Positions 12,143 through 31,489 are shown, numbered from the stretch's first letter. The stretch: 64,000 nt of DNA from an uncultured Candidatus Saccharibacteria bacterium (GCA_964600695.1 CAZRKK010000002.1:5354-69353), one strand, 5' to 3'. The notes: generated by a model from the letters alone, not told the origin. Made by a program: numbers and translations.

Positions 12143-13420
12143 ATGAATAAATTAAGCTTAATTTGGAAAACTAAAGATTTGCGTTGGAAGATCTTCATGG
12201 TCATGATGTTGCTTTTAGTGACTCGTGTTTTGGCTCATGTCCCAATTCCTGGGATTAGCGTCACTGGCTTGAAGGCTTTCTTCGAAAGCAATCAATTTTT
12301 AAACTTATTGAACGTTTTTTCTGGTGGTGGACTAAGTAACTTTTCTATCGCTATGCTTGGTGTTGGACCATACATCACAGCATCTATTATTATGCAGTTG
12401 TTGGTCATGATTGTTCCTTCACTTACAGAACTACAGAAAGAAAGTGGAGAAGCTGGTCGAGTTAAAATCAACCAGTACACTCGTTTTTTGACTTTGCCAT
12501 TAGCAGTTTTGTCTGGTTTCGGAACTATTCGATTATTACAAAGCCAAGGTGGGGCAGAGTTACTTGGAACTTTCTCTCCTTTCCAGTGGTTCCTAACTTT
12601 GTTAACAGTTACCGCTGGTACAATGTTGGTTATGTGGATCGGTGAAATCATTTCCGAATACGGAATTGGTAATGGTGTATCTTTAGTAATTTTCGCCGGT
12701 ATCGTTTCTCAGTTACCTAAGAGCGTTGGTTCGTTGGTTCAGTTATATGATCCAAGCCAATTACCAACCATTATTGGATTTGCTATTGTCGCTTTGATCG
12801 TTATCGCCAGTGTAGTATTTGTGACTGAAGCTCAGCGCAATGTCCCGGTTACGTATGCAAAGCGGGTGAGTGGAGATAAACAAGTTGGTGGAGTTAACTC
12901 ATTCTTACCGTTACGTCTTAACCAAGCAGGTGTTATTCCAATCATCTTCGCAATTTCATTATTGTTGTTCCCAGCGATTATTGCTCAGTTCTTCTTAAAT
13001 GCCAAGACTCCTTTGATTGCTGAATATGCCCAAAAAGCTATTGATTTTACAAATAATCAAGGCGTTTGGTATGGCGTATCTTACTTCCTATTAGTTGTTA
13101 TATTCACTTATTTCTACACTAATATTGTTGTAAATCCAGATGAAGTTTCCGAAAACATGCAACGCAGTGGTGGCTTTGTTCCTGGTATTCGCCCCGGGAA
13201 GCAGACTGCTGATTACTTATACAAAGTTTTGAACCGCATCACTTTGCCTGGATCCTTATTCCTTGGTTTAATCGCTATCCTGCCTTTCATCTTACAAACA
13301 TGGACAGGAACCCGAGCATTAACATTTGGTGGTACTGGATTGCTGATTGTAGTAGCGGTAGTAATTGAAAGTATCAAGCAAGTCGAGGCTCAGCTAACTA
13401 TGCACGACTATCAAAAATAA
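12143..13420 (+). CDS. secY: preprotein translocase subunit SecY
   Basis: 425-aa 10-TM protein with SecY motifs (GISVTGLKAFF, GVGPYITASIIMQLL, NGVSLVIFAGI), after rplO. Confidence 0.96.
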   Translation: MNKLSLIWKTKDLRWKIFMVMMLLLVTRVLAHVPIPGISVTGLKAFFESNQFLNLLNVFSGGGLSNFSIAMLGVGPYITASIIMQLLVMIVPSLTELQKESGEAGRVKINQYTRFLTLPLAVLSGFGTIRLLQSQGGAELLGTFSPFQWFLTLLTVTAGTMLVMWIGEIISEYGIGNGVSLVIFAGIVSQLPKSVGSLVQLYDPSQLPTIIGFAIVALIVIASVVFVTEAQRNVPVTYAKRVSGDKQVGGVNSFLPLRLNQAGVIPIIFAISLLLFPAIIAQFFLNAKTPLIAEYAQKAIDFTNNQGVWYGVSYFLLVVIFTYFYTNIVVNPDEVSENMQRSGGFVPGIRPGKQTADYLYKVLNRITLPGSLFLGLIAILPFILQTWTGTRALTFGGTGLLIVVAVVIESIKQVEAQLTMHDYQK

Positions 13421-13426
13421 ATTATT

Positions 13427-13458
13427 AACTCCCTCTAGTAATTAGGGGGAGTTTTTTT
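13427..13458 (+). terminator. rho-independent terminator after secY
   Basis: aactccctc (13427-13435) pairs with gggggagtt (13445-13453), one G-U pair, followed by a T7 run. Confidence 0.75.
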
Positions 13459-13481
13459 ATTGGTATTTATTAGGAGTTTTG

Positions 13482-13490
13482 TGGTATAAT
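13482..13490 (+). promoter_or_regulatory. extended -10 promoter (TGgTATAAT)
   Basis: Exact TGGTATAAT, ending 9 nt before the ATG at 13500. Confidence 0.55.
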
Positions 13491-13499
13491 ATTCATATT

Positions 13500-13874
13500 A
13501 TGGCAGAAGAAATAAGAAAAATTCCTGGATTCGAATCAGAGCAATCTGCGGAACCAAATAGCAACGAGTCCCCAGAATCAGAACAGACTGAATCTCTAGA
13601 AGCATCGTCTTCGGAAACTCTGAGTGATAATAACTTAGACCAGCAGGATTTGAACGAGACACCAATTGAAGAAGAAGTCGATACATCTAACTTATCGATC
13701 GAATCAGCTTTAGAGCCCAAATCAGGAGTGACTGCTTCTGATTCTATTGCTTCCGAAAGTAACGATGAAGTTCTTTCTGAAAGATTGTTAGCCGACAGTA
13801 AAGAATTAGAGACTGCCACCGAAGCCCGTAAACTTTTAAATGATATCTTAGGCACAACCGAAACTAAAAACTAG
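13500..13874 (+). CDS. acidic S/E/D-rich, probably disordered protein
   Basis: 124 aa from the ATG at 13500. The TTG at 13479 in the ORF track overlaps the promoter. Low-complexity acidic composition, no family recognised. Confidence 0.5.
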   Translation: MAEEIRKIPGFESEQSAEPNSNESPESEQTESLEASSSETLSDNNLDQQDLNETPIEEEVDTSNLSIESALEPKSGVTASDSIASESNDEVLSERLLADSKELETATEARKLLNDILGTTETKN

Positions 13875-13909
13875 GTTTGTAAAATAAAAGCAAAAAATAA
13901 AAATTATCA

Positions 13910-16468
13910 ATGCCTTTTGGATTTGAACTCAATACTGTAATTTATGCATCACTACTACTAGGAATTTTAGTAGTAGTGTTTTTGCTTGTCGCTGCTTATT
14001 ATATTCACAGGCATTGGTATTACAGTCATGTCATTTTACCCCGCACTAAAGAGTGGGTGTTTTTGGAAATTCAAATGCCAAAAGACAACAGCGAGGATAA
14101 AGAAAAATATCAACGCGATGAAGAAAAAAAATTACTAATTGGTATTGCCGAGCAATTATTCACAACTTTATCAGGAATTAGTCACACTAATTGGTTTTGG
14201 CAACCTAAAGAATATATAAGTTTTGAAATTGCGTGTACAGACAAAAAGATTTCCTTTTATATCAATTGTCCGCGTAAGCTTCAGGAGCTAATAGAAAAAC
14301 AAGTTCAAGCTCAGTACCCTCACGCTTTTATCGAGGAGATTAAAGGCTATAATCCCTTTCCAGAAACTGGGGAGATCGAAGCTACCGAGTTAAGATTGAC
14401 CAAGCCTTATATGTATCCTTTTCGTACTTACAAGAGTATGGAAACAGATCCATTGAATGCGTTAACAAACGCTATGTCAAAACTGAGCGATGGTGATGGG
14501 GCGGTTATTCAAATGATTTTGTATCCAGCAGGGGATCACTGGCAGCATCGTCCGCGGCACATGGCTTTAGAAATTCAGCAAGGTAAAAATCCGAACATTG
14601 TTGCCAAGAGTGCGTTTGGAAGATTTGCGCGCGAGGTAGGAAGCACAGCTAAGGATGGTGTCTTAGGTGGAACTCAGTTAAGTAAAGATCAAATGCAACA
14701 ACGTACCGATTTGTCGGGACGTTATTCGGCCATCAACTTAACTCCGATGCAACAAGACATGGTTAAGCGTTTCGAAGAAAAAGCTAGCCGCCCAGGCTTC
14801 TATACCAACATTCGTATTGTCACAGCATCACCAACTCCTGGAACAGCTAAAGTGAATATGCATAATTTAGTGTCTTCATTTTTGCAGTACAACATGCCGC
14901 CGTTTAATGGTTTTAGAGTTAAGCGTCGTGCTAAGAAGCGTATTATTAAAGATTATATTTTTAGAATTTATCGCCGCTACGGACGTAAGTCTATTTTAAA
15001 TACCGAAGAATTAACTAGTATTTGGCATCTTCCGACTCCATTTTTGGAAACACCTAATATTAAATGGTTGTTATCTAAAAAAGCTCCACCACCTATAAAC
15101 TTGCAACCAGAAGGAATATTACTAGGCCGAAATATATATCGTGGGCAGGAGACACCAATTCATATGGCACGTGATGATCGTCGTCGTCACATGTATATTT
15201 TGGGACGTACTGGTGTGGGTAAAACCGAAATCATGAAATACATGTCCGTTCAAGATATCAAGAACGGTGATGGAATTTGTATTATCGATCCTCATGGTGA
15301 TTTTATTGAAGATGTTTTACCTCACATTCCAAAAGAACGAGCCGAAGATGTAATCTTATTTGACCCATTCGATACCGACAGGCCGATGGGTTTGAACATG
15401 CTCGAAGTCACTAGTGAAGGTCAAAAAGATTTTGCTGTTCAAGAAATGATCTCTATCTTTTATAAATTAGTTACAGATCCTGCGATGCTTGGACCTATGT
15501 TCGAGCACAACATGCGTAATGCCATGCTAACCTTAATGGCTGACGAAGAAAATCCTGGAACTATTGTTGAAGTCCCACGTATATTTACGGACACTGAATT
15601 CCAAAAGTATAAAGTCTCTAAATTAAATGATCCTGTGGTAAGAGCATTTTGGGAGAAAGAAATGGCCAAGACTTCCGATTTTCATAAGTCGGAAATGTTA
15701 GGTTACTTAGTTTCTAAAGTAGGCCGCTTTGTAGAAAATTCCATGATGCGAAATATTGTTGGTCAACCAAAGAGTTCTTTTAACTTCCGTGATATCATGG
15801 ATAACAAAAAAATTCTTTTGGTGAATTTAGCAAAGGGTAAAGTAGGGGAGGTGAACGCAAAATTAATTGGCTTAATTTTAGTGAGTAAAATTCAAATGGC
15901 GGCATTGTCCCGTGCAGATATTCCAGAAAGCGAACGCCAAGATTTCTATTTATATGTTGATGAATTCCAAAACTTTATTACCGATGCTTTTTCTTCTATT
16001 TTGAGCGAAGCCCGTAAGTATCGATTGAATTTGATTATTGGTCATCAGTTCTTAGCTCAGTTGGGGCAAGCAGCTGGTGCGCAAGGTGCAGCTAGTAACG
16101 ATTTACGTGATGCTGTGTTTGGTAATGCTGGTAGTATGGTAACTTTCCGTATTGGTGTAGAAGATAGTGAAGTTATGGCAAAGGAGTTTGCACCAACTTT
16201 TAATGAGTTTGATTTATTAAATGTCGATAGATTTAATGCTTTTGTAAAGTTGATGATTAATGGAACAGCCAGCAAACCATTTAACATGGCCACATACCCC
16301 TTAGCTAAACCAACTGAAGATCAAAAGAAGACAGGGGATGCTATTCGACAGTTATCAAGGTTAAAATTTGGTCGTCCACGGGCCGAAGTTGAAGCAGAAA
16401 TCCTAGAAGCCAGCCAAGTTGCTGATATGATGGCGGCTGGTCCAGGGAGTATCGAGAAAACGGTTTAA
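13910..16468 (+). CDS. membrane-anchored P-loop NTPase, TraG/VirD4 (type IV coupling protein)-like, FtsK-HerA superfamily
   Basis: N-terminal TM helix (VIYASLLLGILVVVFLLVAAYYI). Walker A is LGRTGVGKTE and IIDPHGDF follows it. Walker B is FYLYVDEFQNF, then ARKYRLNLIIGHQFLAQL, resembling the TraG-D_C region. Confidence 0.7.
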   Translation: MPFGFELNTVIYASLLLGILVVVFLLVAAYYIHRHWYYSHVILPRTKEWVFLEIQMPKDNSEDKEKYQRDEEKKLLIGIAEQLFTTLSGISHTNWFWQPKEYISFEIACTDKKISFYINCPRKLQELIEKQVQAQYPHAFIEEIKGYNPFPETGEIEATELRLTKPYMYPFRTYKSMETDPLNALTNAMSKLSDGDGAVIQMILYPAGDHWQHRPRHMALEIQQGKNPNIVAKSAFGRFAREVGSTAKDGVLGGTQLSKDQMQQRTDLSGRYSAINLTPMQQDMVKRFEEKASRPGFYTNIRIVTASPTPGTAKVNMHNLVSSFLQYNMPPFNGFRVKRRAKKRIIKDYIFRIYRRYGRKSILNTEELTSIWHLPTPFLETPNIKWLLSKKAPPPINLQPEGILLGRNIYRGQETPIHMARDDRRRHMYILGRTGVGKTEIMKYMSVQDIKNGDGICIIDPHGDFIEDVLPHIPKERAEDVILFDPFDTDRPMGLNMLEVTSEGQKDFAVQEMISIFYKLVTDPAMLGPMFEHNMRNAMLTLMADEENPGTIVEVPRIFTDTEFQKYKVSKLNDPVVRAFWEKEMAKTSDFHKSEMLGYLVSKVGRFVENSMMRNIVGQPKSSFNFRDIMDNKKILLVNLAKGKVGEVNAKLIGLILVSKIQMAALSRADIPESERQDFYLYVDEFQNFITDAFSSILSEARKYRLNLIIGHQFLAQLGQAAGAQGAASNDLRDAVFGNAGSMVTFRIGVEDSEVMAKEFAPTFNEFDLLNVDRFNAFVKLMINGTASKPFNMATYPLAKPTEDQKKTGDAIRQLSRLKFGRPRAEVEAEILEASQVADMMAAGPGSIEKTV

Positions 16469-16509
16469 GTAGCTGTAAGCAGCCATAATTAGTAATAAGT
16501 CAGTGGGTA

Positions 16510-16538
16510 TTGACAAAATCAACTATTTGTGATATTAT
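16510..16538 (+). promoter_or_regulatory. near-consensus sigma70 promoter with extended -10
   Basis: TTGACA (16510-16515), 17-nt spacer, TGaTATTAT (16530-16538). Confidence 0.65.
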
Positions 16539-16593
16539 ATTCGCAGTAGTTTTTTTGTAGTTTAAATCAATTTAGTTGGAGGACTTTGTTAAT

Positions 16594-17064
16594 ATGTATA
16601 AAAACTCGTTGGTCATGAAGATGATCCTAACGTTTGCGGCCTTTAGCGCCGTCGTTGTATTCCTGAACTACGTGGTCGGCATGCCGACTACTAAGCGCAT
16701 GAACTTCGTCTTGATGAGCTATGGTGTTGGTTCGGCCACCATCTTGGCTCTCGCGGCCGTTTTTCCGAGCCGTCTGACATCGGCGCTGTGCCGTCTTGTG
16801 CAGATTGGTTGGGCAGTGGCCATCGTTCTCGGTGGTTTTGCTATGATTATTATCATTGTGGTTGGTTTGGGGCAGTTTAACCTGCCGTTCCTATCGCTAC
16901 AGTGGTATAGCCTGTTCATGGCTTTAGGAATCTTGGGGGCCAGCGTGTTCATGTTTGTCAACGACTCGTATTTTGAAGTCGTTAACGAATATGAAAGCAA
17001 AGCTGGGAAGCCTAAGGTGGTGACACCGCCGGCAAACAGCACTTCGTCGAGCGTTTCGGCATAG
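16594..17064 (+). CDS. 4-TM membrane protein, G+C/CpG-rich coding sequence, no family recognised
   Basis: GGAGGA at 16578-16583, 10 nt before the ATG at 16594, which I prefer over the TTG at 16576. Four hydrophobic helices. Codon usage differs from neighbouring genes. Confidence 0.6.
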   Translation: MYKNSLVMKMILTFAAFSAVVVFLNYVVGMPTTKRMNFVLMSYGVGSATILALAAVFPSRLTSALCRLVQIGWAVAIVLGGFAMIIIIVVGLGQFNLPFLSLQWYSLFMALGILGASVFMFVNDSYFEVVNEYESKAGKPKVVTPPANSTSSSVSA

Positions 17065-17091
17065 AAACTCCGCACAAGGGTTAGAAGTATT

Positions 17092-17128
17092 GGGTAAGAG
17101 CGAAAATATTCGCTTTTACCCTTTTTTT
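17092..17128 (+). terminator. rho-independent terminator
   Basis: 11-bp stem gggtaagagcg (17092-17102) / cgcttttaccc (17111-17121) with one G-U pair, then T7. Confidence 0.8.
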
Positions 17129-17169
17129 ATTGCCTAAAATTGCCATTTTAAAATTTCTGTTATCAGCTA

Positions 17170-17198
17170 TTGACAAAACATCAAAAATAGTGTATACT
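17170..17198 (+). promoter_or_regulatory. near-consensus sigma70 promoter
   Basis: TTGACA (17170-17175), 17-nt spacer, TATACT (17193-17198). It shares the tattgacaaaa context with the promoter at 16510. Confidence 0.65.
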
Positions 17199-17233
17199 GT
17201 TACTTAAACTAAATATTGGTTAGAAAGTGAATT

Positions 17234-17346
17234 ACCTTCAGAAATTCAGATTTATCGAGATATGGTTTTCTGAAGGTCATGCACGTGTATGACTGTTGTA
17301 GCGCTGTAAATAAAAAAACAGCATTGTAACGGTCAATCACATGACC
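17234..17346 (+). ncRNA. structured 5' leader (four consecutive hairpins), candidate cis-regulatory RNA
   Basis: P1 17234-17277 has an 11-bp stem. P2 17276-17293 is a near-palindrome. P3 17295-17330 has a 13-bp stem with G-U pairs that work only on the + strand. P4 is 17331-17346. Confidence 0.4.
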
Positions 17347-17385
17347 AAGTTTTCAAAAACAGCCTAAGGAGGGCTAATCAATACT

Positions 17386-18102
17386 ATGCAGAAATTCATT
17401 ATTTCGTTCGTTTTTGTCGCAATGTCACTTATGGCTGTTTCGTCGGCCTCGGCCCAGAATCCGGACTTGAACGTTCCGGTGCCTTCGGGAAAGACGCAGA
17501 CCACGAAGAGCCCGGACTTGAACGTTCCGGTGCCTAACAAGTCGGTTCAAAGTTCGGCTAACGTCTATAGGACGTACCGCAACACTACGGTCGTTAAGAA
17601 GTATTCCATGAACGGCGTCGACAAAGACGCTCGTGAAGTGAATGTCGCTCAGGACATTCGTATAAAAAAACTGGAAGACGGCAAGGCTAACTCGTCGGAC
17701 GTCGAAGCAGGATTTAAGTCGGTTGACGATCGTTTCGCGGCTAAGGATCAGGTGGATGCACGACAGGACCGAGAGCTCGGATATACTTTCTGGGCTTTCA
17801 TAATCATCCCGGTAGTCTTTCTGGTTCTGGCGTTGTTGTACTTCATGTTTGGAGGCAACAATAATAACGTTCAGGTTAACGGTGGTGGACATGCACCGGC
17901 ATACGTACCTCAGGCCCAGCCTGCAGTACAGCCGATACCATACTACCAGCCTATTCCTGCACAACCCGTTCCTGCGGCACAACCGGTTCCTGCAGCCAAC
18001 CAACAGCCAAGCGTAAATGTTCCGATCAATATTGCGGTCGAGCCGATTCAGATCGATCTCCGACCGTCGTTGCGTGGAACACCGCCGGCACCCGCTCAGT
18101 AG
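17386..18102 (+). CDS. secreted, TM-anchored protein with PDLNVPVP repeats and a P/Q-rich tail; G+C/CpG-rich coding sequence
   Basis: AAGGAGGG lies 9 nt upstream of the ATG. Signal peptide ends ...AVSSASA|Q. TM helix FWAFIIIPVVFLVLALLYFMF. 11 of 16 Ser codons are TCG. Confidence 0.65.
   Translation: MQKFIISFVFVAMSLMAVSSASAQNPDLNVPVPSGKTQTTKSPDLNVPVPNKSVQSSANVYRTYRNTTVVKKYSMNGVDKDAREVNVAQDIRIKKLEDGKANSSDVEAGFKSVDDRFAAKDQVDARQDRELGYTFWAFIIIPVVFLVLALLYFMFGGNNNNVQVNGGGHAPAYVPQAQPAVQPIPYYQPIPAQPVPAAQPVPAANQQPSVNVPINIAVEPIQIDLRPSLRGTPPAPAQ
17461..17535 (+). repeat. 24-nt exact direct repeat, two copies 51 nt apart
   Basis: ccggacttgaacgttccggtgcct occurs at 17461-17484 and 17512-17535, encoding PDLNVPVP twice. 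Confidence 0.9.
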
Positions 18103-18118
18103 TGAGCATCTCTCTTAC

Positions 18119-18149
18119 AGAGAGCAAGGTAAAACTTGCTCTCTTTTTT
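18119..18149 (+). terminator. rho-independent terminator
   Basis: Perfect 10-bp stem agagagcaag (18119-18128) / cttgctctct (18135-18144), then T6. Confidence 0.85.
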
Positions 18150-18167
18150 CATTTTTATAAAAAATAG

Positions 18168-18176
18168 TGGTATAAT
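18168..18176 (+). promoter_or_regulatory. extended -10 promoter (TGgTATAAT)
   Basis: Exact TGGTATAAT, 37 nt upstream of the ATG at 18213. Confidence 0.55.
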
Positions 18177-18212
18177 TAAAACAACTTTAAATTGTTAATT
18201 CGAAACAAAAAT

Positions 18213-21200
18213 ATGGCTAAAGCCGAAATGGCTCGTCAACCAGATCAAGGTCCAGAACCGGCAATTGACTTGTCGAAAACACTCAAAACCAGTGTAGATG
18301 ATGCTAAAAATAGAGCACGACCACGAGGCCGTGATGTTGATTTTGCTATCCAGCAGAATGATATGCGCGAAGCTAATTTAAGACAGGGTCATCCAGACAT
18401 ATCTGATAAAAAAGAGTTTATTCGACGGGAAAAGGCAAAGAACGAGGCGCGTAGTAAGTCTAAATCTGAAAAGGGACCTAAAAAGAATGAAGTAATTCTT
18501 CAACCTATAGCTCCGGCAGAAAAATTAAAAGCTGTAGTTAACCAAGAAAAAGCCGCGCAGAAACAAAAACCAGAGCAAAAGCCGGAAACACAGCCAGAAC
18601 AAAAGATAGCTCAACAAGAACAAAAAGCAGCCCAAGAAACCAGTAAAGTTGTAGAAAGTGTAGTTCAGGAAAGCACTAAAGAGATGTCCGCAGAAGTGGA
18701 CAAGGCACTTGCCGTACATGCAATTAGTCCAGAACATGCTCAGCAAGCCAAAGCAGTTATAAACAATGAACAGGTAAAGCAAGGAGTTTTTTCTAGAGCT
18801 TTTGGTGCTATAAAAGACAAAGCAGTGGGTGTTAAAGAGTGGTTTGCAGATAGTCCTAGGTTAACTTCACTTTTGGTTGGTGCGGGTACTGGTATGGGTG
18901 TTCGTTACGCTGTTAAGGCTGGGTTTATTGCTGCATTTGGAGCAAACTTACCTTGGTTGGTTGCCGCAGGTGCCACTGCAGGTGGTTTACTAGAAGGTGG
19001 GCGTTCATTTTGGCGTGAATCAAAATCCTATCAATCTAAAGAGATTATGGATCGGTTCAGAAGCGCGGATTATCTAGAAAAGGCAGCCATGCTTTCTAAG
19101 CTTGAGGAAGCATACAAAACCCAAAGATTTGATGCGTCTCCAGAAGGTTACCAAGAAATTGGTACAGCTTTGGCTCATGCTCGAACAGAAATGCAACTTG
19201 AATTAGACAAAAAGGATGGCAAGTTTGCTAATCATTCCGATCGAGATAAAATTCAATATATTTTAAATTTATCACAAGGTATTAAGGGTGAAATTCATAA
19301 AGATAATCGTGGTAAGGAAGCCAGAAAGCTTATTCGTGACATCGAAAAGAGCTTAGAGTACAAGCGTGATTTTAAAGGTGTCTTACAGAACAAAAAGATG
19401 GTAGTTGCCAAGGCAGCTCTTAAAGGTGCAGCTTATGGTGGGCTGGGTTCATTAATCGGTGGGGCAGTATCACACTATTTCTTCGAAAGTGGAACAACTC
19501 AAACTGTCAGCCATGTTGTCGAGAACAGACCTACTGTGGCAGATCATTTTACAAAACATTTAGATCATCGAGGTTTAACCGGTGGTGCTCGTGATTCATT
19601 GCATGATTTGATAGAAGAACAAAGAGGTATTGATCCTAATTTTGCCGAAGGAGTCACTGTAGAGCAACTAGTTTATGCAGAAGACACTCTCGCTAAAGAG
19701 GCTATTAAAAATGGCGTTAAGTCTGGCGTTTCGGAGCATACTTGGACTCATGATGAGTTGATGCGAGCCTTAGAAAAATCTGGAGCGGTTGGAGATAGTT
19801 CTACGCTTACTGAAGCAGGAGAAAGGAATATCGGACGATTGATTTCGCATCGACCTCATTTCTTGTCCGAAGCTACCAAAGAGAAAATGCTTGATTTTAC
19901 ACCTAAAGATTTTAATGTAGTTGTTGAGCAAATTACTTCTCAACCAGAAAATATCGTTCTCTCAAACGAAGATTATGCAGCTATTATTGGTGCACTAACC
20001 CTAGTAGCGGCTTCAGAAGTGGCTAGTGCCGCCGACAGAAGAATCGCTAAGAATCGGCTTGAACAAATGCAAGCGAATCCTCCAACTGGCCAGCCAGGGG
20101 ATGGTGTAGAAACAGCTCCAGCTAATAATGTTGTATGGCCTACAGAAGGTGTTCTTACTGCAGAAGAAGCACGTGTGGATAATAGAAAATTCCCTAATGG
20201 CCCACCACCGTCACCATTTGATGGTAATGTAGAAACTACTCCTACACCTAAACCAGAGGGTAGTCCTTTTGATGACGAAAAAAAGCAAAATGCAGAGTCG
20301 ACTACTAATAAAGCAGGTAAGGTTGAGGAAATTGACGAAGATGTTGAAGCTCAAGTGGATGTACAAGATTTGCCTGGTGTAGAAAAAATCAAAGACTCGG
20401 AAGTTACTCCCGATGCAATTAATCGAAAACTGAAGAGTGCAAAAGTTAATGCAGAAGTAGTACCATGGCCTTTAGAAAAGATTACCAACAAACAGAAAGG
20501 ACAAATTAACAGATTAACTGATTTATATATTTCTTCGGCACGCAAGTTAAACGCCTTAAATATTACAAATAAGGTTGTCTTGAATTTTTATCCAACAGGT
20601 TCAAGAGAGTTAGATTTTACAGATTCTGAATTTACCGCTGGTATTCCTCTTAGTGATAAAACTTATAATAAAAAGAGCTTCGAGAGCTTAGTAGATAGGA
20701 TGATTGAAACTAAGATTTCCGAAAAGTTTGCTGAAATACAAAATAACTATGCATTTCAAACAGAGATGCCTGTCATAGGAAATTCAGAGGATGATCAAGC
20801 TGTTGAACAGTATAAAGCTTTAGATAAATTCCAGCGAAACATGGAAGCAATCGACGCAAAAGAATTAAAACGACTAACTTCTGGACTTAAGAAAGTTACA
20901 ATTGGTGACTATTCATTTATAGGTACTGATGAGGTGGTTCTACCAATGTTTATTAGAGACAACAGGGGTTATCATTATAAATCTTTCAAGCCTAACCAAT
21001 TAAAGGGTATGTTGAAAGAGTATTCCAAAGATCGGTTTGCGTTAAAGCCGATGGATTTAAAAGAGCAGAATGATAAATATCCAAATATTGGAGCAGATAA
21101 AAACTTTTACGATAATATCGAGGAAGCTGAGAGGATAAAAGCAGAAGAATTAGTATACAGTGTTATTGAAAATGAATTCAAAGATGGTTTTCCACCAAAC

Positions 21201-21806
21201 GTAAAGGTATTGTTTTCGGATAGATTCCAGTCAAAGCCAGGTGTCTTATACCTCGACATGTCAAAGTTTGACCAAGCATATATTAGTCGTCAGCTTCACC
21301 AAGGATTGCGTCGTTCTGCGCCAGATCGTTTACAGCGCACTCCTGGTCCTGTTAAAGAGCGTTTAAAGCGGGTTTCTCCTGATTATGGGAATAAAAAGTC
21401 TGACCAAGACAAAGCCATTGAAGCAGCTGTTGATAGAATAATTCGACCCGAAGATTGGGAGAAAAAAGAAACTGGGCCAGCTAATTTAAACCATATTGAA
21501 GAACAGAACGGAGAAGATGAGCTCTATAGTTTACTTGGAGACATAGATAAGAAATATCCAGGGTCTATCTCCGAAAGCATGCAAAAAAAGATCTCTAGTT
21601 ACTTAAAAGACAATAATTTATCAGCAGAGGATTTACTAACCGCCGATAAATTACCTAAAATTACGAGTGTTCTTCCTAAAAAACTTGAGCAGTACATAGC
21701 CGAAGAGTCGTTTGCTAAACTAGAAAAACTGGCAATGGCCGACGAGGATTATACTGACGAAGGCATTAGATTAAAAAATCAGTTAGAAGAATTCATCAAA
21801 AAATAA
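18213..21806 (+). CDS. giant (~1197 aa) multi-TM protein, no family recognised
   Basis: I prefer the ATG at 18213 over the TTG at 18192. The protein has a K/Q/E-rich N-terminal region, G/A-rich hydrophobic segments (e.g. SLLVGAGTGMGV...LPWLVAAGATAGGLL), a P-rich linker and a ~500-aa C-terminal region. Confidence 0.6.
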   Translation: MAKAEMARQPDQGPEPAIDLSKTLKTSVDDAKNRARPRGRDVDFAIQQNDMREANLRQGHPDISDKKEFIRREKAKNEARSKSKSEKGPKKNEVILQPIAPAEKLKAVVNQEKAAQKQKPEQKPETQPEQKIAQQEQKAAQETSKVVESVVQESTKEMSAEVDKALAVHAISPEHAQQAKAVINNEQVKQGVFSRAFGAIKDKAVGVKEWFADSPRLTSLLVGAGTGMGVRYAVKAGFIAAFGANLPWLVAAGATAGGLLEGGRSFWRESKSYQSKEIMDRFRSADYLEKAAMLSKLEEAYKTQRFDASPEGYQEIGTALAHARTEMQLELDKKDGKFANHSDRDKIQYILNLSQGIKGEIHKDNRGKEARKLIRDIEKSLEYKRDFKGVLQNKKMVVAKAALKGAAYGGLGSLIGGAVSHYFFESGTTQTVSHVVENRPTVADHFTKHLDHRGLTGGARDSLHDLIEEQRGIDPNFAEGVTVEQLVYAEDTLAKEAIKNGVKSGVSEHTWTHDELMRALEKSGAVGDSSTLTEAGERNIGRLISHRPHFLSEATKEKMLDFTPKDFNVVVEQITSQPENIVLSNEDYAAIIGALTLVAASEVASAADRRIAKNRLEQMQANPPTGQPGDGVETAPANNVVWPTEGVLTAEEARVDNRKFPNGPPPSPFDGNVETTPTPKPEGSPFDDEKKQNAESTTNKAGKVEEIDEDVEAQVDVQDLPGVEKIKDSEVTPDAINRKLKSAKVNAEVVPWPLEKITNKQKGQINRLTDLYISSARKLNALNITNKVVLNFYPTGSRELDFTDSEFTAGIPLSDKTYNKKSFESLVDRMIETKISEKFAEIQNNYAFQTEMPVIGNSEDDQAVEQYKALDKFQRNMEAIDAKELKRLTSGLKKVTIGDYSFIGTDEVVLPMFIRDNRGYHYKSFKPNQLKGMLKEYSKDRFALKPMDLKEQNDKYPNIGADKNFYDNIEEAERIKAEELVYSVIENEFKDGFPPNVKVLFSDRFQSKPGVLYLDMSKFDQAYISRQLHQGLRRSAPDRLQRTPGPVKERLKRVSPDYGNKKSDQDKAIEAAVDRIIRPEDWEKKETGPANLNHIEEQNGEDELYSLLGDIDKKYPGSISESMQKKISSYLKDNNLSAEDLLTADKLPKITSVLPKKLEQYIAEESFAKLEKLAMADEDYTDEGIRLKNQLEEFIKK

Positions 21807-21809
21807 GCC

Positions 21810-22124
21810 ATGATTAAAGATACAATAGACAAGGTTCTTAAAGAGTTAAACGTCAACAATCTATCTGATGATGATAAGTTTGCGGTGATGGAGCAACTTA
21901 CAGAGCACTTTAACAAAATCATTCTAGACACAGTACTAGCTAATCTTAATGACGAGCAACTCCTCGAGTTTAAGAATATGGTTGATCTGGAGGATTTAGA
22001 TAAAATGGAAGAAGGAATTGCTCTTATTGTAGCCAAAATTCCCGCAATAAACTTTAAAATCGAAGAAGCCATTAATAATGAAATCGCTCATATTAAAGAA
22101 TCCAAAGCGATAATCGATCGATAG
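21810..22124 (+). CDS. small acidic helical protein, hypothetical
   Basis: 104-aa ORF starting 3 nt after the giant gene's stop, so probably co-transcribed. Confidence 0.5.
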   Translation: MIKDTIDKVLKELNVNNLSDDDKFAVMEQLTEHFNKIILDTVLANLNDEQLLEFKNMVDLEDLDKMEEGIALIVAKIPAINFKIEEAINNEIAHIKESKAIIDR

Positions 22125-22148
22125 TTACTTTCTTTTTAAACATAGTTG

Positions 22149-22157
22149 TGGTATAGT
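22149..22157 (+). promoter_or_regulatory. extended -10-like promoter (TGgTATAGT)
   Basis: TGGTATAGT, 78 nt upstream of the ATG at 22235. Confidence 0.4.
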
Positions 22158-22234
22158 TCTGGTAACTGTCTAGGACTGAATTTATTGCGGAAACAGAAAT
22201 CAAAATTTAAAAATCAAAGAAAACCAAAAACAAA

Positions 22235-22882
22235 ATGGATAAATCAGCAAATTTTGCTTTGATCGTGCAAATGATCGAAGCTGCAGAAAAGAATATTCAA
22301 TCGGCTAAGCATTTATTGCGAGAAATGGCCGGTGGAACTGTATCTAAATCTTCCACTAACTTTTTAGAAAAGGCTAGTGGTCTTGATGTTAGTCAAGGTG
22401 GTAAAGTTGTCGAGGGTGTGTTTGATGGACAAAACATGATTGGTCCGGATAGCAAACAGTACCCAGTTCCAGCTAATTATGCATCCAAATCCAAATTAGT
22501 TGAAGGTGATGTGCTTAAATTAACAATCGCAGATGACGGCTCGTTTATTTATAAGCAGATTGGGCCAGTTGAGCGTCGCAAGTTGATTGGTGTGTTAATG
22601 CAGGACGAAAATGGTGATTATAAAGTTATCGCAGATGGCAAAACTTTTCGGGTTTTATTGGCTTCACTTACTTATTTTAAAGCTCAGGGTGGTGACGAAG
22701 TAACTATTGTTGTCCCTAGTGAAGGTGATACTCAATGGGCTGCAGTAGAAAATGTGATCAAGCATTTAGGTGGTGACGGAAGTTCCGACGGGGAATTTAG
22801 TGCATCCGCTGGGCTGCAAGACCAAAAAGATGAAGACATGGAAGCTGAGGGTTTAGCCTCTGGCGAGACAGAAGAATTTTAA
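22235..22882 (+). CDS. hypothetical protein with acidic C-terminal tail
   Basis: 215-aa ORF, no family recognised. Confidence 0.5.
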   Translation: MDKSANFALIVQMIEAAEKNIQSAKHLLREMAGGTVSKSSTNFLEKASGLDVSQGGKVVEGVFDGQNMIGPDSKQYPVPANYASKSKLVEGDVLKLTIADDGSFIYKQIGPVERRKLIGVLMQDENGDYKVIADGKTFRVLLASLTYFKAQGGDEVTIVVPSEGDTQWAAVENVIKHLGGDGSSDGEFSASAGLQDQKDEDMEAEGLASGETEEF

Positions 22883-22909
22883 TTTTTAATCTTAATTAGG
22901 ATTAGTTTT

Positions 22910-23578
22910 ATGGAAGGTCAGTTGCTTACATTCAATCAAAAACTAACTCAATTGCTGGCAAATAAACCAGTTATTTTGCAAATTCTAAAATTTGCTGCTA
23001 TAGGTGCTCTTAACACAGCTTTAGATTTTATTATTCTCAATTATGTTACTAAAGCTTTTGGTGTGGAATCAGGACTTAATTTAGGCCTTTTAAATGTCAT
23101 TAGTTTTGGAGCAGCAATGATTCAGAGCTACTTATGGAATCGGGCATGGACCTTTGCAGCATCTAATTCTTCTCCTTTATCTAATCTATTTCGGTTGATA
23201 GTTGTTGGTGGTTTGGGGTTTGTTAGCTTTTTATTGGTGGTTATAGGTGGAATTTACAGCGTAGTCGATACCTATTACTTATTCATTTTAATAGTATTTT
23301 TAATTGCAGAAATCTTGATTTGGTATGGTTTTAACCTTAATTTAGGTAGTGATTCCAGTGTTGGTGTCGGTCATCAGTTTGGAATATTCATGATTGTTAG
23401 TTTAATTGGGTTATTGATAAATAGCGGAATTGTAGTAATTGCTTCTATGGCTCTAGCCCCGACATTATCTAATTTAATTAATGTGGATTCTGTAAAGAAT
23501 GTAGCTAAGATCCTGGCAACCATGGTTTCTTTGATCTGGAATTTTGTAGGTTATAAGCTATTTGTGTTCAAGAAATAA
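22910..23578 (+). CDS. GtrA-like membrane protein (polysaccharide synthesis/translocation family)
   Basis: LKFAAIGALNTALDFIILNYV near the N-terminus and WNFVGYKLFVFKK at the C-terminus are typical GtrA-family ends. Contains an extra internal TM segment. Confidence 0.65.
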   Translation: MEGQLLTFNQKLTQLLANKPVILQILKFAAIGALNTALDFIILNYVTKAFGVESGLNLGLLNVISFGAAMIQSYLWNRAWTFAASNSSPLSNLFRLIVVGGLGFVSFLLVVIGGIYSVVDTYYLFILIVFLIAEILIWYGFNLNLGSDSSVGVGHQFGIFMIVSLIGLLINSGIVVIASMALAPTLSNLINVDSVKNVAKILATMVSLIWNFVGYKLFVFKK

Positions 23579-23612: not shown

Positions 23613-23635
23613 ACTGGCGTATAGCCAGTTTTTTT
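23613..23635 (+). terminator. rho-independent terminator
   Basis: actggc (23613-23618) / gccagt (23624-23629), followed by T7. Confidence 0.6.
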
Positions 23636-23636
23636 A

Positions 23637-23645
23637 TGGTATAAT
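23637..23645 (+). promoter_or_regulatory. extended -10 promoter (TGgTATAAT) for dnaX
   Basis: Exact TGGTATAAT, 78 nt upstream of the dnaX ATG. Confidence 0.55.
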
Positions 23646-23722: not shown

Positions 23723-25273
23723 ATGGCAGTATTTTACCAAACATATCGACCACAAAATTTTTTGGAAGTCATTGGCCAAGAGGCGATTGTTAAAACCCTT
23801 CAACAAGCTGTTGCAAGCGGGAAGATTGGTCATGCTTATTTGTTTACCGGCAGTCGTGGTATAGGAAAAACTACACTAGCAAGGATACTGGCTAAGGCCG
23901 CTAACTGTAATACTCTTAAAGATGGTAACCCTTGTGGGATTTGTGATATTTGTTTAAATATCGCCAATGGTTCCTTCTTGGATGTAATAGAAATTGACGC
24001 TGCATCTCATACTGGTGTAGATAACATCCGCGAACTCATCGAACATATTAGATTTCAACCTTCACAGGGTAGAACTAAAGTTTTTGTAATAGACGAAGTA
24101 CATATGCTTTCCAAAGCAGCCTTTAATGCTTTACTCAAAACTTTAGAAGAACCACCATCACATGTCTTGTTCATTTTAGCTACTACTGACATAGAAAAAG
24201 TTCCGGATACGATTATTTCTCGAACTCAGCGATTTGATTTTAGAAAGATTACTACCGATCAAATTAAAAAAGCTTTGCAACAAATTGTTAAGGTAGAAAA
24301 ATTATCTTTGCCAGAAGAGGCTATTGATGTCATTGTCGAAAATAGTGAAGGTGGTTTACGAGATGCTTTATCTCAATTATCATTAGCTGCTCATTTAGAT
24401 AGCTCTGCAAAGGCAGAAGACATTCATTTGTTGTTGGGAACAACATCACGGTCATCAGTTTTGGAGTTGTTGAATTTAATTTCCGAAGGTAAGACTTATG
24501 AGTTAAACGCTTTTTTTAACAAATTAACTCAAGCTAATTTTGATGCTGTTTCTTTTGCCAGAAAGACTTTAGTTATTTTACAGGAGCATTTAGAGGCAAA
24601 TCTTTCTGCTTCGAGTGACGGTAAAAATGGCGCTAATGATTTGATTGCAAGTCTTAGCCTTGCTCAGTTACTTTACATTATTCGATTGTTTATGCGAGCT
24701 TACAAAGAGATTGATAAAGCCTTAACTCCAGAACTTCCCTTGCTAATGGCTAGTATCGAAGCGGCGTTATTTATTAAACCTAACTCGACAATTTCTGTGG
24801 AAAAAGGCCGAAGTGAGCAAAGTAGCTCCGCGGCTACAGCATCGATAATTTCTACAAGTGAATTAGTGGATATACCAATTCAAAAGCAACCAGTTTTTGC
24901 TACAGAAAATATCGAGCCCGAGCAGGATAGTGATTTAAATTTAACAGCTGAACAGGTTAAAGAGTGGTGGCCTGGTCTTGTAGCAGAAGTGAAGGCAGTG
25001 AACAGCCCTTTGTCTACTTTGTTAAAAAATTCTCCTATCCATGAGGTTTCCGGTAATCGAGTCAGTGTAATGGTTAGATACCTTTTCCATAAAGAACATT
25101 TAGAAAATGCCAAGATTCGCGTGATGATTTCCAATTATCTAGGCGAAAAAGCTGGTGGAAACGTAGAATTTAGAGTAGTGATCCAAAAAGATTCGGTTGG
25201 AGAACAAATCGTTGATACGGCCTCTGCTGTATCTGATGCAATAAAAATATTCGGTGGCGAATTGGTGGAGTAA
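23723..25273 (+). CDS. dnaX: DNA polymerase III subunit gamma/tau
   Basis: YRPQNFLEVIGQE...GHAYLFTGSRGIGKTTLARILAKAANC...C..C..C zinc module...FVIDEVHMLS...SRTQRFDF. Confidence 0.93.
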   Translation: MAVFYQTYRPQNFLEVIGQEAIVKTLQQAVASGKIGHAYLFTGSRGIGKTTLARILAKAANCNTLKDGNPCGICDICLNIANGSFLDVIEIDAASHTGVDNIRELIEHIRFQPSQGRTKVFVIDEVHMLSKAAFNALLKTLEEPPSHVLFILATTDIEKVPDTIISRTQRFDFRKITTDQIKKALQQIVKVEKLSLPEEAIDVIVENSEGGLRDALSQLSLAAHLDSSAKAEDIHLLLGTTSRSSVLELLNLISEGKTYELNAFFNKLTQANFDAVSFARKTLVILQEHLEANLSASSDGKNGANDLIASLSLAQLLYIIRLFMRAYKEIDKALTPELPLLMASIEAALFIKPNSTISVEKGRSEQSSSAATASIISTSELVDIPIQKQPVFATENIEPEQDSDLNLTAEQVKEWWPGLVAEVKAVNSPLSTLLKNSPIHEVSGNRVSVMVRYLFHKEHLENAKIRVMISNYLGEKAGGNVEFRVVIQKDSVGEQIVDTASAVSDAIKIFGGELVE

Positions 25274-25360: not shown

Positions 25361-26995
25361 ATGTTTACTAACCCAGAACAAAAAAATAAAAAGATTACCT
25401 TTGCAGTAATAGCGATGGCGGTCGTTGCTTTGGCCGTGGTAACAATATGGCAACCAGGAGAGTTAAGCTTCACGGATAAAACAGATTACAATGCTGAGAC
25501 ACAAAGAGCTCAGGCTGAATTAGCACAATACAAAGCCTTTTTAGCGGAACTTGAACCAAATTACGAAGCTAGTCAACAGTTATTAAAAAAGATTGCTAGT
25601 GCAGATGTAGTTCGTGCAGAAGTTGAGCAGACTTTACAGACAAAGCAGAAAATTGTTATTCCACAAATCGCCAACTCCGAATTAAATATCAGCGATCGTA
25701 AGGATAAAGACTTTGTTTTAAATTATTTGAACACAGTTAGTTCCATGGTGGCTAATTACAAAAATGCAGTTCAACCCGGAACTAATGATTTATTTGTTGA
25801 TAATGCCAACTCTGCTAGTTTGGCTAGGGCTAAGTCGGAAACCGATAGATTTTTAGCAAATTTACGCGGTGTGTCTGTGCCTGCTAGTTTAGTTGAATTA
25901 CACAAAGCTAATATTGTTTCTTTTCAAAAGTACGGACAAATTTTTAATGATGCAGCAAGTTATAGCGAGGGAAGTAACATCGATCCATGGCCAAGTTTCT
26001 ACCAGAGTTACGCTGTGATCGATAATAGATTAGCTGTAGTAAGTAACGAATTAACAAAAGTTGGAAATCAGTTTGCTTTAGCCGAAGAGTTAGAGCGCGC
26101 AACAGGGCCACCATTTATTAAAGTAGCTCAAGCTCAATTAGGTGGTGTGGTAGTAGTTTCTACAGATTTAAAGCGTGATATTTTGGAAGGCATTAAAGAA
26201 GGTTTGGCTAAGTCTTTTGCAAACTTTTCCATGAAGATGCTAGATAAATTAGTCTCTCATATCGAAAAAAGTTTTGCTATTGCTAGTCAACTATATTATT
26301 CCAATGAGCTTGGTAGGTTCTATTCTGTTGAGTATATGAAGAAATTTGTTTCTGATCCACTGGACCAAAGTATTATCCAAAAGTTTTTACCCGAATACTT
26401 TTGTATCGCGCCAAACAAAAAAGATTTGAATAAAATCTTTGTAGCCAAGGCAGCCGAAAATGTGGGTAATGATATAACCATTAATCCGAATGATCCAGAC
26501 TTTGTAGAAAAACTAGCACGGTTGGGAAGTGATGAAAAAAATTATCCACAATGGTGGGAAGGTTACTATCAAGGTTTGGCAGCACAAACAAAGGCAGAGG
26601 CCGAAAGTGCTTCTACTAAAGAAGTTTTGAGCCCTGGAGTAAAAACCGGGAGAGACATAATTACTAACCAAGTTAACAAAACAGTTTCGGCAATTTTCAG
26701 TGTACAAGAAGCGGCAATTTCTGGAGCAATTAACTTAGGAACCAATAACACAGGTAGCCCTGTGAGTCAGTTAGTTTCTGGTGTGGTAGAAGGCTTGGTT
26801 AATAAATTTGTGTTTACCCCAATAAGTGGTGGAGCTTCTAGTGGCGGTGGGATTGGCGTTATCCAAGAAAAAAATGTTTGTCTACAAACTCAAGAGATTA
26901 AGCCTTTGATTCCATTACCTTCATCGGAATACGAAACACCTACAGGAACAACTACAGCTCCAGTTACATCACCACCGTTTGTACCACGTAATTAA
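25361..26995 (+). CDS. membrane-anchored or secreted hypothetical protein
   Basis: 544 aa with N-terminal TM helix (ITFAVIAMAVVALAVVTIW) and a G/S/T/P-rich C-terminus. No family recognised. Confidence 0.55.
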   Translation: MFTNPEQKNKKITFAVIAMAVVALAVVTIWQPGELSFTDKTDYNAETQRAQAELAQYKAFLAELEPNYEASQQLLKKIASADVVRAEVEQTLQTKQKIVIPQIANSELNISDRKDKDFVLNYLNTVSSMVANYKNAVQPGTNDLFVDNANSASLARAKSETDRFLANLRGVSVPASLVELHKANIVSFQKYGQIFNDAASYSEGSNIDPWPSFYQSYAVIDNRLAVVSNELTKVGNQFALAEELERATGPPFIKVAQAQLGGVVVVSTDLKRDILEGIKEGLAKSFANFSMKMLDKLVSHIEKSFAIASQLYYSNELGRFYSVEYMKKFVSDPLDQSIIQKFLPEYFCIAPNKKDLNKIFVAKAAENVGNDITINPNDPDFVEKLARLGSDEKNYPQWWEGYYQGLAAQTKAEAESASTKEVLSPGVKTGRDIITNQVNKTVSAIFSVQEAAISGAINLGTNNTGSPVSQLVSGVVEGLVNKFVFTPISGGASSGGGIGVIQEKNVCLQTQEIKPLIPLPSSEYETPTGTTTAPVTSPPFVPRN

Positions 26996-30850: not shown

Positions 30851-31489
30851 ATGCTTATTCCGGCAATATTAGAAAATAATAAAAAGAAATATTTAGAAAA
30901 TCTAAAAGCAGTTTTAGCATTGAAGAATATCAAGTCTATACAAATAGATTTTGCCGATGGGGAATTTGTGGCCACTAAAACTTTACCAATCGCCGAGATA
31001 GAACTTCCTGCAAGGTCTAAAATTTTGTTCGAAGCACATTTGATGGTTAAAGAACCCAAGGATTTTGTTTTGTATCAAAAGGCTGGGTTTAAAAAAATCA
31101 TCGTTCATTACGAAGCTTTTAAAAGTGAACTTGATTTAGAAGCAGCTATAGAAGAAATAAAAAAGTTAAAAATGATTCCTGCAATAGCCATTTCTCCAAC
31201 TAGTGAAATTTCTGTAATTCGTTATCATACTGATACAATCAAGGACTTCACTTTGTTGGCTGTGGTTCCGGGTAGGCAAGGACAAAAAATGTTACCAGAA
31301 ACTTTTGATCGACTTCGAGAATTAAGAGATCATGCCCCAGGTGCAAATATCGAGATAGATGGCGGAGTTGATGGTAAAAATATTGCTTCTTTAATAGACG
31401 CCGGCGCAACAGATTGCGTAGCAGGTTCAAGTTTACTAAGAGGTGATATTAAAGAGAATTATAAAGTGCTTATGGAGGCTTTAAAATAA
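30851..31489 (+). CDS. rpe: ribulose-phosphate 3-epimerase (divergent)
   Basis: 212 aa with IDFADGEFV, HLMV, VHYEA, VVPGRQGQK and IEIDGGV, aligned with the Rpe barrel pattern. Confidence 0.72.
   Translation: MLIPAILENNKKKYLENLKAVLALKNIKSIQIDFADGEFVATKTLPIAEIELPARSKILFEAHLMVKEPKDFVLYQKAGFKKIIVHYEAFKSELDLEAAIEEIKKLKMIPAIAISPTSEISVIRYHTDTIKDFTLLAVVPGRQGQKMLPETFDRLRELRDHAPGANIEIDGGVDGKNIASLIDAGATDCVAGSSLLRGDIKENYKVLMEALK

Follow-up and report, generated by a model that had tools for sequence, protein, structure and literature searches.

Much of bacterial diversity is made up of Patescibacteria, and their exchange of material with host organisms is an open problem. Orphan type IV coupling proteins (T4CPs) were already published for this group in 2025: 5,713 T4CP homologues were counted in 2,918 of 3,035 Patescibacteria genomes, 148 of the 5,713 lay near virB4, VirB4-based type IV secretion systems (T4SSs) were found in 2,417 genomes, and of the orphan VirD4-type proteins the authors say that exaptation "cannot be ruled out" (Quinonero-Coronel et al. 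2025, PMC12102498). In one species tested, Southlakia epibionticum, the T4SS is essential, and the passages of the literature drawn on here recognise no coupling protein in or near its cluster (PMC12102498, PMC10633639, PMC12857230). We analyzed a 64,000-nucleotide stretch of DNA from an uncultured Candidatus Saccharibacteria bacterium (CAZRKK010000002.1:5354-69353; hereafter the window), in which a gene behind secY, g2, encodes a membrane-anchored ATPase that represents, as far as those passages describe it, the same phenomenon as the orphan T4CPs. The findings on g2 bear on the exchange question. They concern a block (13427-23578) that is a mosaic of three parts: a conserved g1-g2 unit; a hypervariable island of g3, g4 and g5-g6; and a conserved g7-GtrA unit, followed by dnaX. 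The passages of PMC12102498 drawn on here contain no DUF8128 architecture, secY/g1/g7/dnaX neighborhood, hypervariable slot or SecY-level conservation. As far as the literature searched here shows, the conjugative ancestry of the DUF8128 protein, its SecY-level constraint, its partnership with g1 and g7 and the adjacent hypervariable slot are new.

g2 is a coupling-protein homologue with a complete catalytic core

13910..16468, + strand: g2, 852-aa membrane-anchored ATPase of the T4CP (VirD4/TrwB) family

The protein begins with a transmembrane (TM) helix (~10-28), followed by an alpha/beta domain (~49-400), assigned to DUF8128 by precomputed Pfam annotation, and a P-loop NTPase domain (~403-800) that carries an all-alpha insertion (~504-620). 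The single hydrophobic helix at 10-28 has a Kyte-Doolittle value of 2.98 and lies within a helix that spans 7-47 in the structure model; the basic residues that follow it predict, by the positive-inside rule, an N-out/C-in topology that leaves most of the protein cytoplasmic. Walker A corresponds to G432-K438 and Walker B to D684-E685, and across 51 sequences down to 32% identity no substitution occurs at G432, G435, K438, D684, E685, R702, K703, Q713 or Q717. Pfam matches to TrwB_AAD_bind (E 1.2e-10, 41.3 bits against a cut-off of 20.5) and T4SS-DNA_transf (1.6e-6, 27.7 bits against 20.1) are accompanied by DUF87 (3e-8) and by a TraG-D_C match that stays under its cut-off (19.5 versus 22 bits). 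NCBIfam adds TraD and the VirD4-like CD1115, with weak matches to CedB and CedD, and a g2 profile recovers TrwB (1e-7) and DotL (7.5e-7) among PDB sequences. An AlphaFold2 model from the 51-sequence alignment (predicted local distance difference test, pLDDT, 85.5) shows the N-terminal helix, an alpha/beta domain of ~350 residues and the P-loop domain with its all-helical insertion, and Foldseek aligns it to TrwB with E 5e-14 and a TM-score of 0.63 (normalised to the target). Since the C-terminal domain of VirB4 scores equally well, fold alone cannot separate a T4CP from VirB4. These data show that g2 is a T4CP homologue: its catalytic core is complete, one N-terminal helix anchors it in the membrane, and its DUF8128 domain lies in the cytoplasm. 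The original prediction, made from the bare sequence, had seen here a TraG/VirD4-like coupling-protein motor, and the TrwB_AAD_bind match, the TrwB fold and the alignment to plasmid T4CPs described next all bear this out.

The most telling comparison is with plasmids. The g2-family profile aligns with the Bacillus subtilis protein WP_213380696.1, annotated as a 'DUF87 domain-containing protein' on plasmid NZ_OX419568.1, with an hhalign probability of 100% (E 1e-49) over columns 88-792, DUF8128 included. Its gene lies directly upstream of one for a replication-relaxation relaxase, with TcpE and an AAA_10 VirB4-like ATPase encoded nearby, and the same layout recurs in the Embleya plasmid NZ_CP108778.1 (WP_331738717.1) and in a metagenomic element (L086). 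A full-length match to plasmid coupling proteins beside relaxases marks g2 as a chromosomal member of the monoderm conjugative T4CP lineage; such alignments indicate that it descends from T4CPs of conjugative elements in monoderms and is now inherited vertically on the chromosome. The likeness to these DUF8128-type plasmid T4CPs of Bacillus and Embleya lies in the shared architecture, an N-domain joined to a TrwB-like NTPase, over ~660-700 aligned residues with a tblastn identity of 23-25%. The plasmid proteins are encoded upstream of a relaxase within a T4SS cluster that includes VirB4-like AAA_10, TcpE, PrgI and NlpC/P60 genes, whereas g2 has no such neighbors, is chromosomal and vertically inherited, and has conserved partners of its own, g1 and g7. 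A literature search on DUF8128 found no papers.

Canonical T4CPs have two TM helices. With TrwB (R388), VirD4, DotL and Cag-beta, g2 shares the aligned Walker A/B and Arg/Gln motifs and an N-terminal membrane anchor; it differs from them in its low identity (~15-18%), in having one TM helix instead of two, in the extra ~350-aa cytoplasmic DUF8128 between anchor and motor, and in the absence of a cognate T4SS or relaxosome nearby. The N-domain-plus-ATPase layout recalls VirB4 among the VirB4/HerA-clade ATPases, which include the C-domain of DndH/DptH and the Ced ATPases. We rejected a VirB4 identity on the grounds that AAA_10, CagE_TrbE_VirB and TraC_F_IV are all missing from the Pfam matches; a separate VirB4 also coexists in the plasmids that carry g2 relatives. 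FtsK/SpoIIIE belong to the same ring-translocase superfamily and are likewise membrane-anchored, but they have four TM helices and a gamma domain, whereas g2 has one helix, no gamma domain and no Pfam FtsK_SpoIIIE match at E<=0.01, and this identity was rejected as well. PADLOC matches fall on the NTPase domain alone (mad8 2.9e-16, HerA 3.7e-5, DndH 6.7e-5) with none for the neighboring genes, and the partner genes of defence systems with HerA/DndH-type ATPases are absent beside g2; a defence system of the MADS, Dnd or HerA-Sir2 type was rejected accordingly. With no FtsK match and no T4SS or relaxase genes nearby, the ATPase indeed lies outside both FtsK/SpoIIIE and any canonical conjugative element. 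Among orthologues, no T4SS or relaxase gene was seen in the flanks of those Patescibacteria loci that were inspected gene by gene, the other ~80 loci having been screened only for the window's own genes.

The constraint on g2 is that of a core gene. In 32 genomes with all markers, median identity was 71.0% for the ATPase, 69.2% for SecY, 67.6% for g7, 61.0% for L15 and 42.5% for DnaX, so that g2 is conserved as strongly as SecY. The family comprises 5,877 clusters (50% identity) at E<=1e-30, and the base composition of g2 (GC 0.39; GC at third codon positions, GC3, 0.33) is host-like.

Some members of the wider family depart from the architecture of g2. Many carry C-terminal extensions, and in the family representatives P0267, P0270, P0271 and P0275-P0280 these run 600-1,200 aa past the ATPase for totals of 1,400-2,000 aa; a separate 517-aa open reading frame (ORF) after the ATPase of locus L095 could correspond to such an extension. 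Large Bacillus phages encode full-length distant homologues of the DUF8128-T4CP, at ~20-23% identity: phage G gp156 (JN638751.1, 91012-93159) and phrog_5156, the latter matching the ATPase over its full length with E 2.8e-94. P0374-type proteins, which join TPR and ATPase domains without DUF8128, were set aside as a different architecture, and their context of ABC-transporter and metabolic genes does not look like that of the candidate phyla radiation (CPR). A metagenome scan with a 40%-identical homologue (P0256) gave two short loci only.

Conserved partners and a variable slot behind secY

The genes of the window all lie on the + strand, at a GC content of ~38%, and the ribosomal-protein cluster closes with S5, L15 and secY. 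Eight co-oriented genes, g1 to g8, follow between 13427 and 23578, with no other credible ORF. Nine had been announced; the co-orientation, the gene types and the sizes (124, 852, 162, 238, 1197/1204, 104, 215 and 222 aa) agree with that description and the count does not. As had been stated, the ATPase and the GtrA protein alone match recognised families in Pfam and NCBIfam.

12143..13420, + strand: secY (ORF call), last gene of the ribosomal-protein cluster, TAA stop at 13418-13420
13500..13874, + strand: g1, 124 aa, acidic (isoelectric point, pI, 4.05) and low-complexity, with a short C-terminal helix motif
16576..17064, + strand: g3, 162 aa (or 156 aa), 4-5 TM segments, GC3 0.64, no family match, homologues in 4 related loci
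17386..18102, + strand: g4, 238 aa, GC3 0.57, homologues in 5 loci
18213..21806, + strand: g5, lineage-restricted giant of 1197 aa (1204 aa from a TTG at 18192), in 8 related loci
21810..22124, + strand: g6, 104 aa, acidic (pI 4.46), always following g5
22235..22882, + strand: g7, 215 aa, highly conserved, predicted tandem OB-fold protein (OB, oligonucleotide/oligosaccharide-binding)
22910..23578, + strand: g8, 222-aa GtrA-family small polytopic membrane protein, 27 nt after g7
23723..25273, + strand: dnaX, DNA polymerase III gamma/tau (Pfam DNA_pol3_delta2, 1.7e-45), conserved right-hand neighbor of the block

We compared this order across ~90 loci, of which 80 were fetched from Doudnabacteria-type metagenome-assembled genomes, 2 were found by exact look-up and 8 represent deeper lineages, by mapping the window's genes on them with blastp; the ATPase has ~2,000 scored homologues that are 70-92% identical over their full length. 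The backbone reads L15, secY, 0-7 small genes, a small ORF, the ATPase, a variable slot, g7, GtrA, dnaX, g10, HtrA and RuvX. secY and then the ATPase occur in 60 of the 83 related loci over which this was counted, the SecY orthologues being 65-94% identical (with precomputed Pfam SecY annotation in L001 and L002), and downstream of the ATPase come g7 in 57 loci, GtrA in 53 and dnaX in 49. Only three parts are conserved: the small acidic ORF with the ATPase, g7 with GtrA, and dnaX.

This order also bears on the end of the ribosomal-protein cluster. A Pfam scan of every non-nested ORF of >=90 aa from 23.7 to 64 kb found none of adk, map, infA, rpmJ, rpsM, rpsK, rpsD, rpoA and rplQ downstream of secY, and tblastn of the window with E. 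coli IF1, L36, S13, S11 and Adk gave no match, in accord with the original prediction. That the cluster had been broken by an inserted block does not follow: with secY upstream of the ATPase in 60 loci this is the usual order, and the break is ancestral to the class rather than a recent insertion.

The first conserved partner is the small ORF represented here by g1. In 74 loci the ATPase is preceded, on the same strand and within 400 bp, by an ORF of ~80-190 aa (mostly 111-156), and each of seven deeper lineages (among them L084, L087, L088, L093, L094 and L095) has a small ORF immediately 5' of the ATPase, sometimes overlapping its start. These ORFs are usually acidic and low-complexity; a C-terminal helix segment resembling L..LLNG....A.ELLN.L is weakly conserved and the rest is not, and those of the deeper lineages fall into at least 2-3 sequence types. 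No match to g1 was found in Pfam, NCBIfam, PADLOC or phrog. g1 is thus a positionally conserved partner ORF of the ATPase, and its product is probably disordered.

The second partner is g7, which has at least 8,000 homologues, contains no Pfam domain and matches no sequence family in Pfam or NCBIfam and no PDB sequence. It carries the invariant motif YPVPANYASKSKL and an acidic tail with EEF or EEL as its usual ending, EEF in the window's copy. In the structure model an N-terminal helix precedes two OB/S1/cold-shock-like beta-barrels (pLDDT ~85-93) and a disordered acidic tail. Adjacency to the ATPase takes three arrangements: g7 lies downstream in Doudnabacteria-type loci; downstream past a 101-aa ORF and directly before dnaX in L084, whose ATPase is 41% identical; and upstream and divergent in L094, at 44% identity. 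On the strength of the model and of its distribution, g7 appears to be a Patescibacteria-wide protein about as conserved as the ATPase and SecY, with a tail like that of SSB, and it seems to merit a study of its own. In L087 (11161-15860) and L095 (11867-16488), gyrB-gyrA stand just downstream of the DUF8128-T4CP in place of g7-dnaX. The g8 product that follows g7 matches Pfam GtrA_DPMS_TM (E 4e-16, 59.7 bits against a cut-off of 26.1) and has 4-7 hydrophobic segments.

Between the two conserved units the gene content turns over. In more than 80 loci, g3 was found in 4, g4 in 5, g5 in 8 and g6 in 7, all in the closest sub-clade, and the ATPase and g7 lie anywhere from 99 bp to >12 kb apart. 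In eight genomes no gene separates the two, the ATPase abutting g7 across a gap of 99-221 bp, and L006, L007 and L001 carry different cargo even though their ATPases are 88-92% identical to that of the window. Other clades fill the slot with a 145-aa family (27 loci), unannotated proteins of 7-10 TM segments and other giants, and Pfam and NCBIfam return nothing for island proteins of other lineages save one weak SLT match. GC3 is 0.64 in g3 and 0.57 in g4 against 0.25-0.36 in all neighboring genes, so that both are compositionally foreign, which suggests recent horizontal acquisition. The rarity of g3-g6, the variable slot, the GC3 of g3 and g4, and the 12 homologues of g5 among 5.8 billion proteins together identify the middle of the block as a hypervariable, partly horizontally supplied island. 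The slot between ATPase and g7 is hypervariable and recombination-prone, holds lineage-specific membrane or surface proteins, and may usefully show where surface proteins diversify in these genomes.

The island proteins themselves offer few clues to function. The N-terminus of g4 resembles a signal peptide; a single TM segment (137-155) and a tail rich in P, Q and A follow. The giant g5 contains no Pfam domain, and its N-terminus is rich in K, E and Q. Of its hydrophobic segments (1-3 in total) one is strong (596-614) and the others are weak and Gly/Ala-rich, so that g5 is not clearly the multi-TM protein described earlier. The product of g6 is probably helical and is remotely related to 101-110 aa ORFs beside other giants (hhalign probability 91% to the L006/L007 family); the giant g5 and the small acidic g6 might conceivably be a cargo-chaperone pair. 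A 630-646 aa membrane protein that is absent from the window occupies the slot beside the ATPase in L001 (12622-14544, - strand), L006 and L007, and matches the Pfam SLT lytic-transglycosylase (VirB1-like) family weakly (4.8e-5).

A proposed coupling or translocation motor and its competitors

About half of our confidence goes to the proposal that g2 was domesticated as a coupling or translocation motor, with g1 as its adaptor or regulator, that would probably feed a distant chromosomal T4SS, with g7 hinting at a single-stranded nucleic-acid substrate. We infer everything beyond fold, catalytic motifs, topology and gene linkage. g2 would form a membrane-tethered, hexameric, NTP-driven ring that recruits a substrate and threads it toward a membrane channel, for which the most economical candidate would be a relaxase-less T4SS on the chromosome, which most Patescibacteria have at another site, typically near dnaA. 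g1 may act as adaptor or regulator by analogy (and analogy only) with CagZ and Cag-beta, where a small partner gene likewise lies upstream, and g7 could connect both genes with a substrate of single-stranded nucleic acid. No functional tie between the island genes and the motor would be needed. Seen in this light, g2, its small acidic partner and g7 make a three-protein candidate that may either supply the coupling function still missing or handle nucleic acid as a system of its own.

Several observations weigh against this proposal. No T4SS gene was found in the window or in the related loci inspected, so that coupling to a distant T4SS is purely inferred. The parts of PMC12102498 consulted here give T4CP homologues in 96% of genomes and VirB4 in 80%, and report that the T4CP homologue of Southlakia epibionticum, which may or may not be an orthologue of the DUF8128 protein, is non-essential whereas the T4SS genes are essential (PMC12102498); as far as these passages go, both the higher prevalence and the dispensable homologue favor a T4SS-independent role. 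The small upstream ORFs of different lineages show no demonstrable homology to one another. Nucleic-acid binding by g7 rests on a fold similarity of modest Z (5-7.7), and the flanks available for L087, L088, L089, L093 and L095 lack g7, some of these flanks extending over only 1-4 kb.

The strongest competitor, which we consider rather unlikely, is a housekeeping nucleic-acid translocase independent of any T4SS, in which the DUF8128-T4CP was exapted together with g7 and handles DNA or RNA at the membrane, with no VirB4-type channel, in a role such as nucleic-acid uptake or export or a chromosome-processing step. The genome counts given above, in the passages cited, speak for it, with T4CP homologues in 2,918 genomes against 2,417 for VirB4, at about two copies per genome and almost never near virB4, as does the dispensable Southlakia homologue beside an essential T4SS (PMC12102498). 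So does conservation of the ATPase equal to that of SecY, and the recurrent neighbors are DNA-related: g7 with its OB and cold-shock folds and SSB-like EEF tail, dnaX in Doudnabacteria-type loci and L084, and gyrB-gyrA in L087 and L095. The fold clade to which g2 belongs (VirB4, TrwB, HerA, DndH) also consists largely of DNA translocases. What such a translocase lacks is a co-conserved membrane channel partner; ComEC, for example, was seen in no locus. The proximity of dnaX or gyrase may merely reflect the clustering of housekeeping genes in tiny genomes, the binding of nucleic acid by g7 is a prediction from its fold, and FtsK reportedly appears in Saccharibacteria transcriptome papers, which would make a role in segregation redundant.

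A bolder version of T4SS independence is unlikely. The DUF8128-T4CP, its small acidic partner and g7 might constitute a Patescibacteria-wide core machine that moves single-stranded nucleic acid across the cytoplasmic membrane or handles it there, next to a slot that would encode lineage-specific surface proteins, perhaps secreted giants with their chaperones, diversifying under host-interaction pressure. If true, its role could be to acquire host nucleic acids in organisms unable to make nucleotides.

The original prediction had read the neighbors as one undescribed envelope translocation or cell-contact module. Taken as an autonomous set of all eight genes, such a module would have the ATPase as its motor and the membrane and giant proteins as channel, surface or substrate parts. 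Co-orientation, contiguity and the number of membrane, secreted or giant proteins agree with such a module, and the same slot elsewhere holds polytopic proteins of 7-10 TM segments, giants with a small acidic partner (g6 and its L006/L007 counterpart, hhalign 91%) and, in three loci, the weak SLT (VirB1-like) protein (4.8e-5), so that the slot is consistently filled with envelope proteins beside a secretion-type ATPase. We nevertheless regard a single module as quite improbable. g3-g6 occur in only 4-8 of more than 80 loci, the cargo differs between genomes with 88-92% identical ATPases, and eight genomes lack cargo altogether with the ATPase abutting g7; it is improbable that parts which can be missing are required by a motor as conserved as SecY. 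The island genes have promoter- and terminator-like signals of their own (at least five units in the block, see below), the codon usage of g3 and g4 is foreign, and the cargo matches neither VirB6, VirB8, VirB3, pilin nor any other family. Conserved linkage to the ATPase is thus largely missing for g3-g6, which is in the main the outcome that the original prediction had itself named as refuting, whereas the small upstream ORF and g7 do stay linked, and the surrounding membrane and giant genes are better described as a fast-turnover island than as motor parts, which corrects the single-module reading. The accompanying claim that VirB4, VirB6, relaxase, pilin and secretin genes are missing nearby stands, as none of these families was found in any scanned ORF of the 64-kb window.

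That the block is a decayed conjugative or other mobile element inserted after secY, with the ATPase as a leftover T4CP and the flanking genes as remnants, is hardly credible: the closest relatives outside Patescibacteria do lie on conjugative-type plasmids and in Bacillus phages, and g3 and g4 do look horizontally acquired, but the ATPase stands at the same locus in 60 related genomes with host-like GC and GC3, all catalytic residues intact, SecY-level constraint and vertical conservation over 5,877 clusters, the window contains no integrase, relaxase, repeats or tRNA, and the Bacillus phage and phrog_5156 homologues are distant (20-23%); a prophage was rejected likewise.

Predicted transcription signals and flanking genes

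Promoters and terminators were called by a consensus scan and by direct reading of the intergenic sequence; the following are consensus matches, not measurements.

13427..13460, + strand: secY terminator-like hairpin with 12-bp stem and 3-nt loop (hairpin 13427-13453), T-run to 13460
13482..13490, + strand: extended -10 element TGgTATAAT (sequence reading), 9 nt before the g1 ATG
16510..16538, + strand: g3 promoter-like site, TTGACA, 17-nt spacer and TATTAT with TG, 11/12 consensus positions
17092..17131, + strand: g3 terminator-like hairpin, 13 bp and T-run
17170..17198, + strand: g4 promoter-like site, TTGACA, 17-nt spacer and TATACT
17199..17385, + strand: g4 leader, ~190 nt, highly structured, 3' of the near-consensus promoter
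18119..18154, + strand: g4 terminator-like hairpin and T-run
18168..18176, + strand: g5 extended -10 element TGgTATAAT (sequence reading)
22149..22157, + strand: extended -10 element TGgTATAGT of the g7-GtrA unit (sequence reading)
23613..23636, + strand: GtrA terminator-like hairpin and T-run
23637..23645, + strand: dnaX extended -10 element (sequence reading)

The hairpin and T-run behind the secY stop had been described correctly. With an extended -10 element 9 nt from the g1 ATG, the g1-ATPase transcript would be leaderless or nearly so. Taken together, the matches indicate that the block comprises at least five putative units bounded by promoters or terminators: g1-g2, g3, g4, g5-g6 and g7-g8. 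Counted without the full T-runs, the terminators behind g3, g4 and g8 span 17092-17121, 18119-18144 and 23613-23629. The g4 leader folds into two long hairpins with a minimum free energy of -55.3 kcal/mol (z = -5.06 against shuffles). Clear conservation across related loci is limited to the promoter part; L005 keeps some of the leader. An Rfam search of the leader and the block gave no family at gathering thresholds and only chance-level matches at E<=1, and a riboswitch or other known RNA in the block was rejected on this account.

Beyond dnaX, the genes identified by Pfam include HtrA, RuvX, GalT and pentose-phosphate and glycolysis genes, together with RecJ, RNase H, a MurA-like EPSP synthase, MreB and DinB, and a two-component system, MraZ, MraW and penicillin-binding proteins. 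Between dnaX and HtrA, g10 (25361-26995) encodes an N-terminally anchored protein of 544 aa with no family match, conserved in 30 related loci at merely 26-71% identity. Upstream of secY, the rpmD (L30) gene is absent between S5 (end 11509) and L15 (start 11537). Absence of L30 at this position is the usual state in the CPR and is consistent with a CPR origin of the window. Farther downstream, two genes share the transketolase, its N-terminal part being encoded at 31489-32340 and its pyrimidine-binding/C-terminal part at 34125-35135; a gene for a 585-aa DUF2339 membrane protein (32368-34125) lies between the halves.

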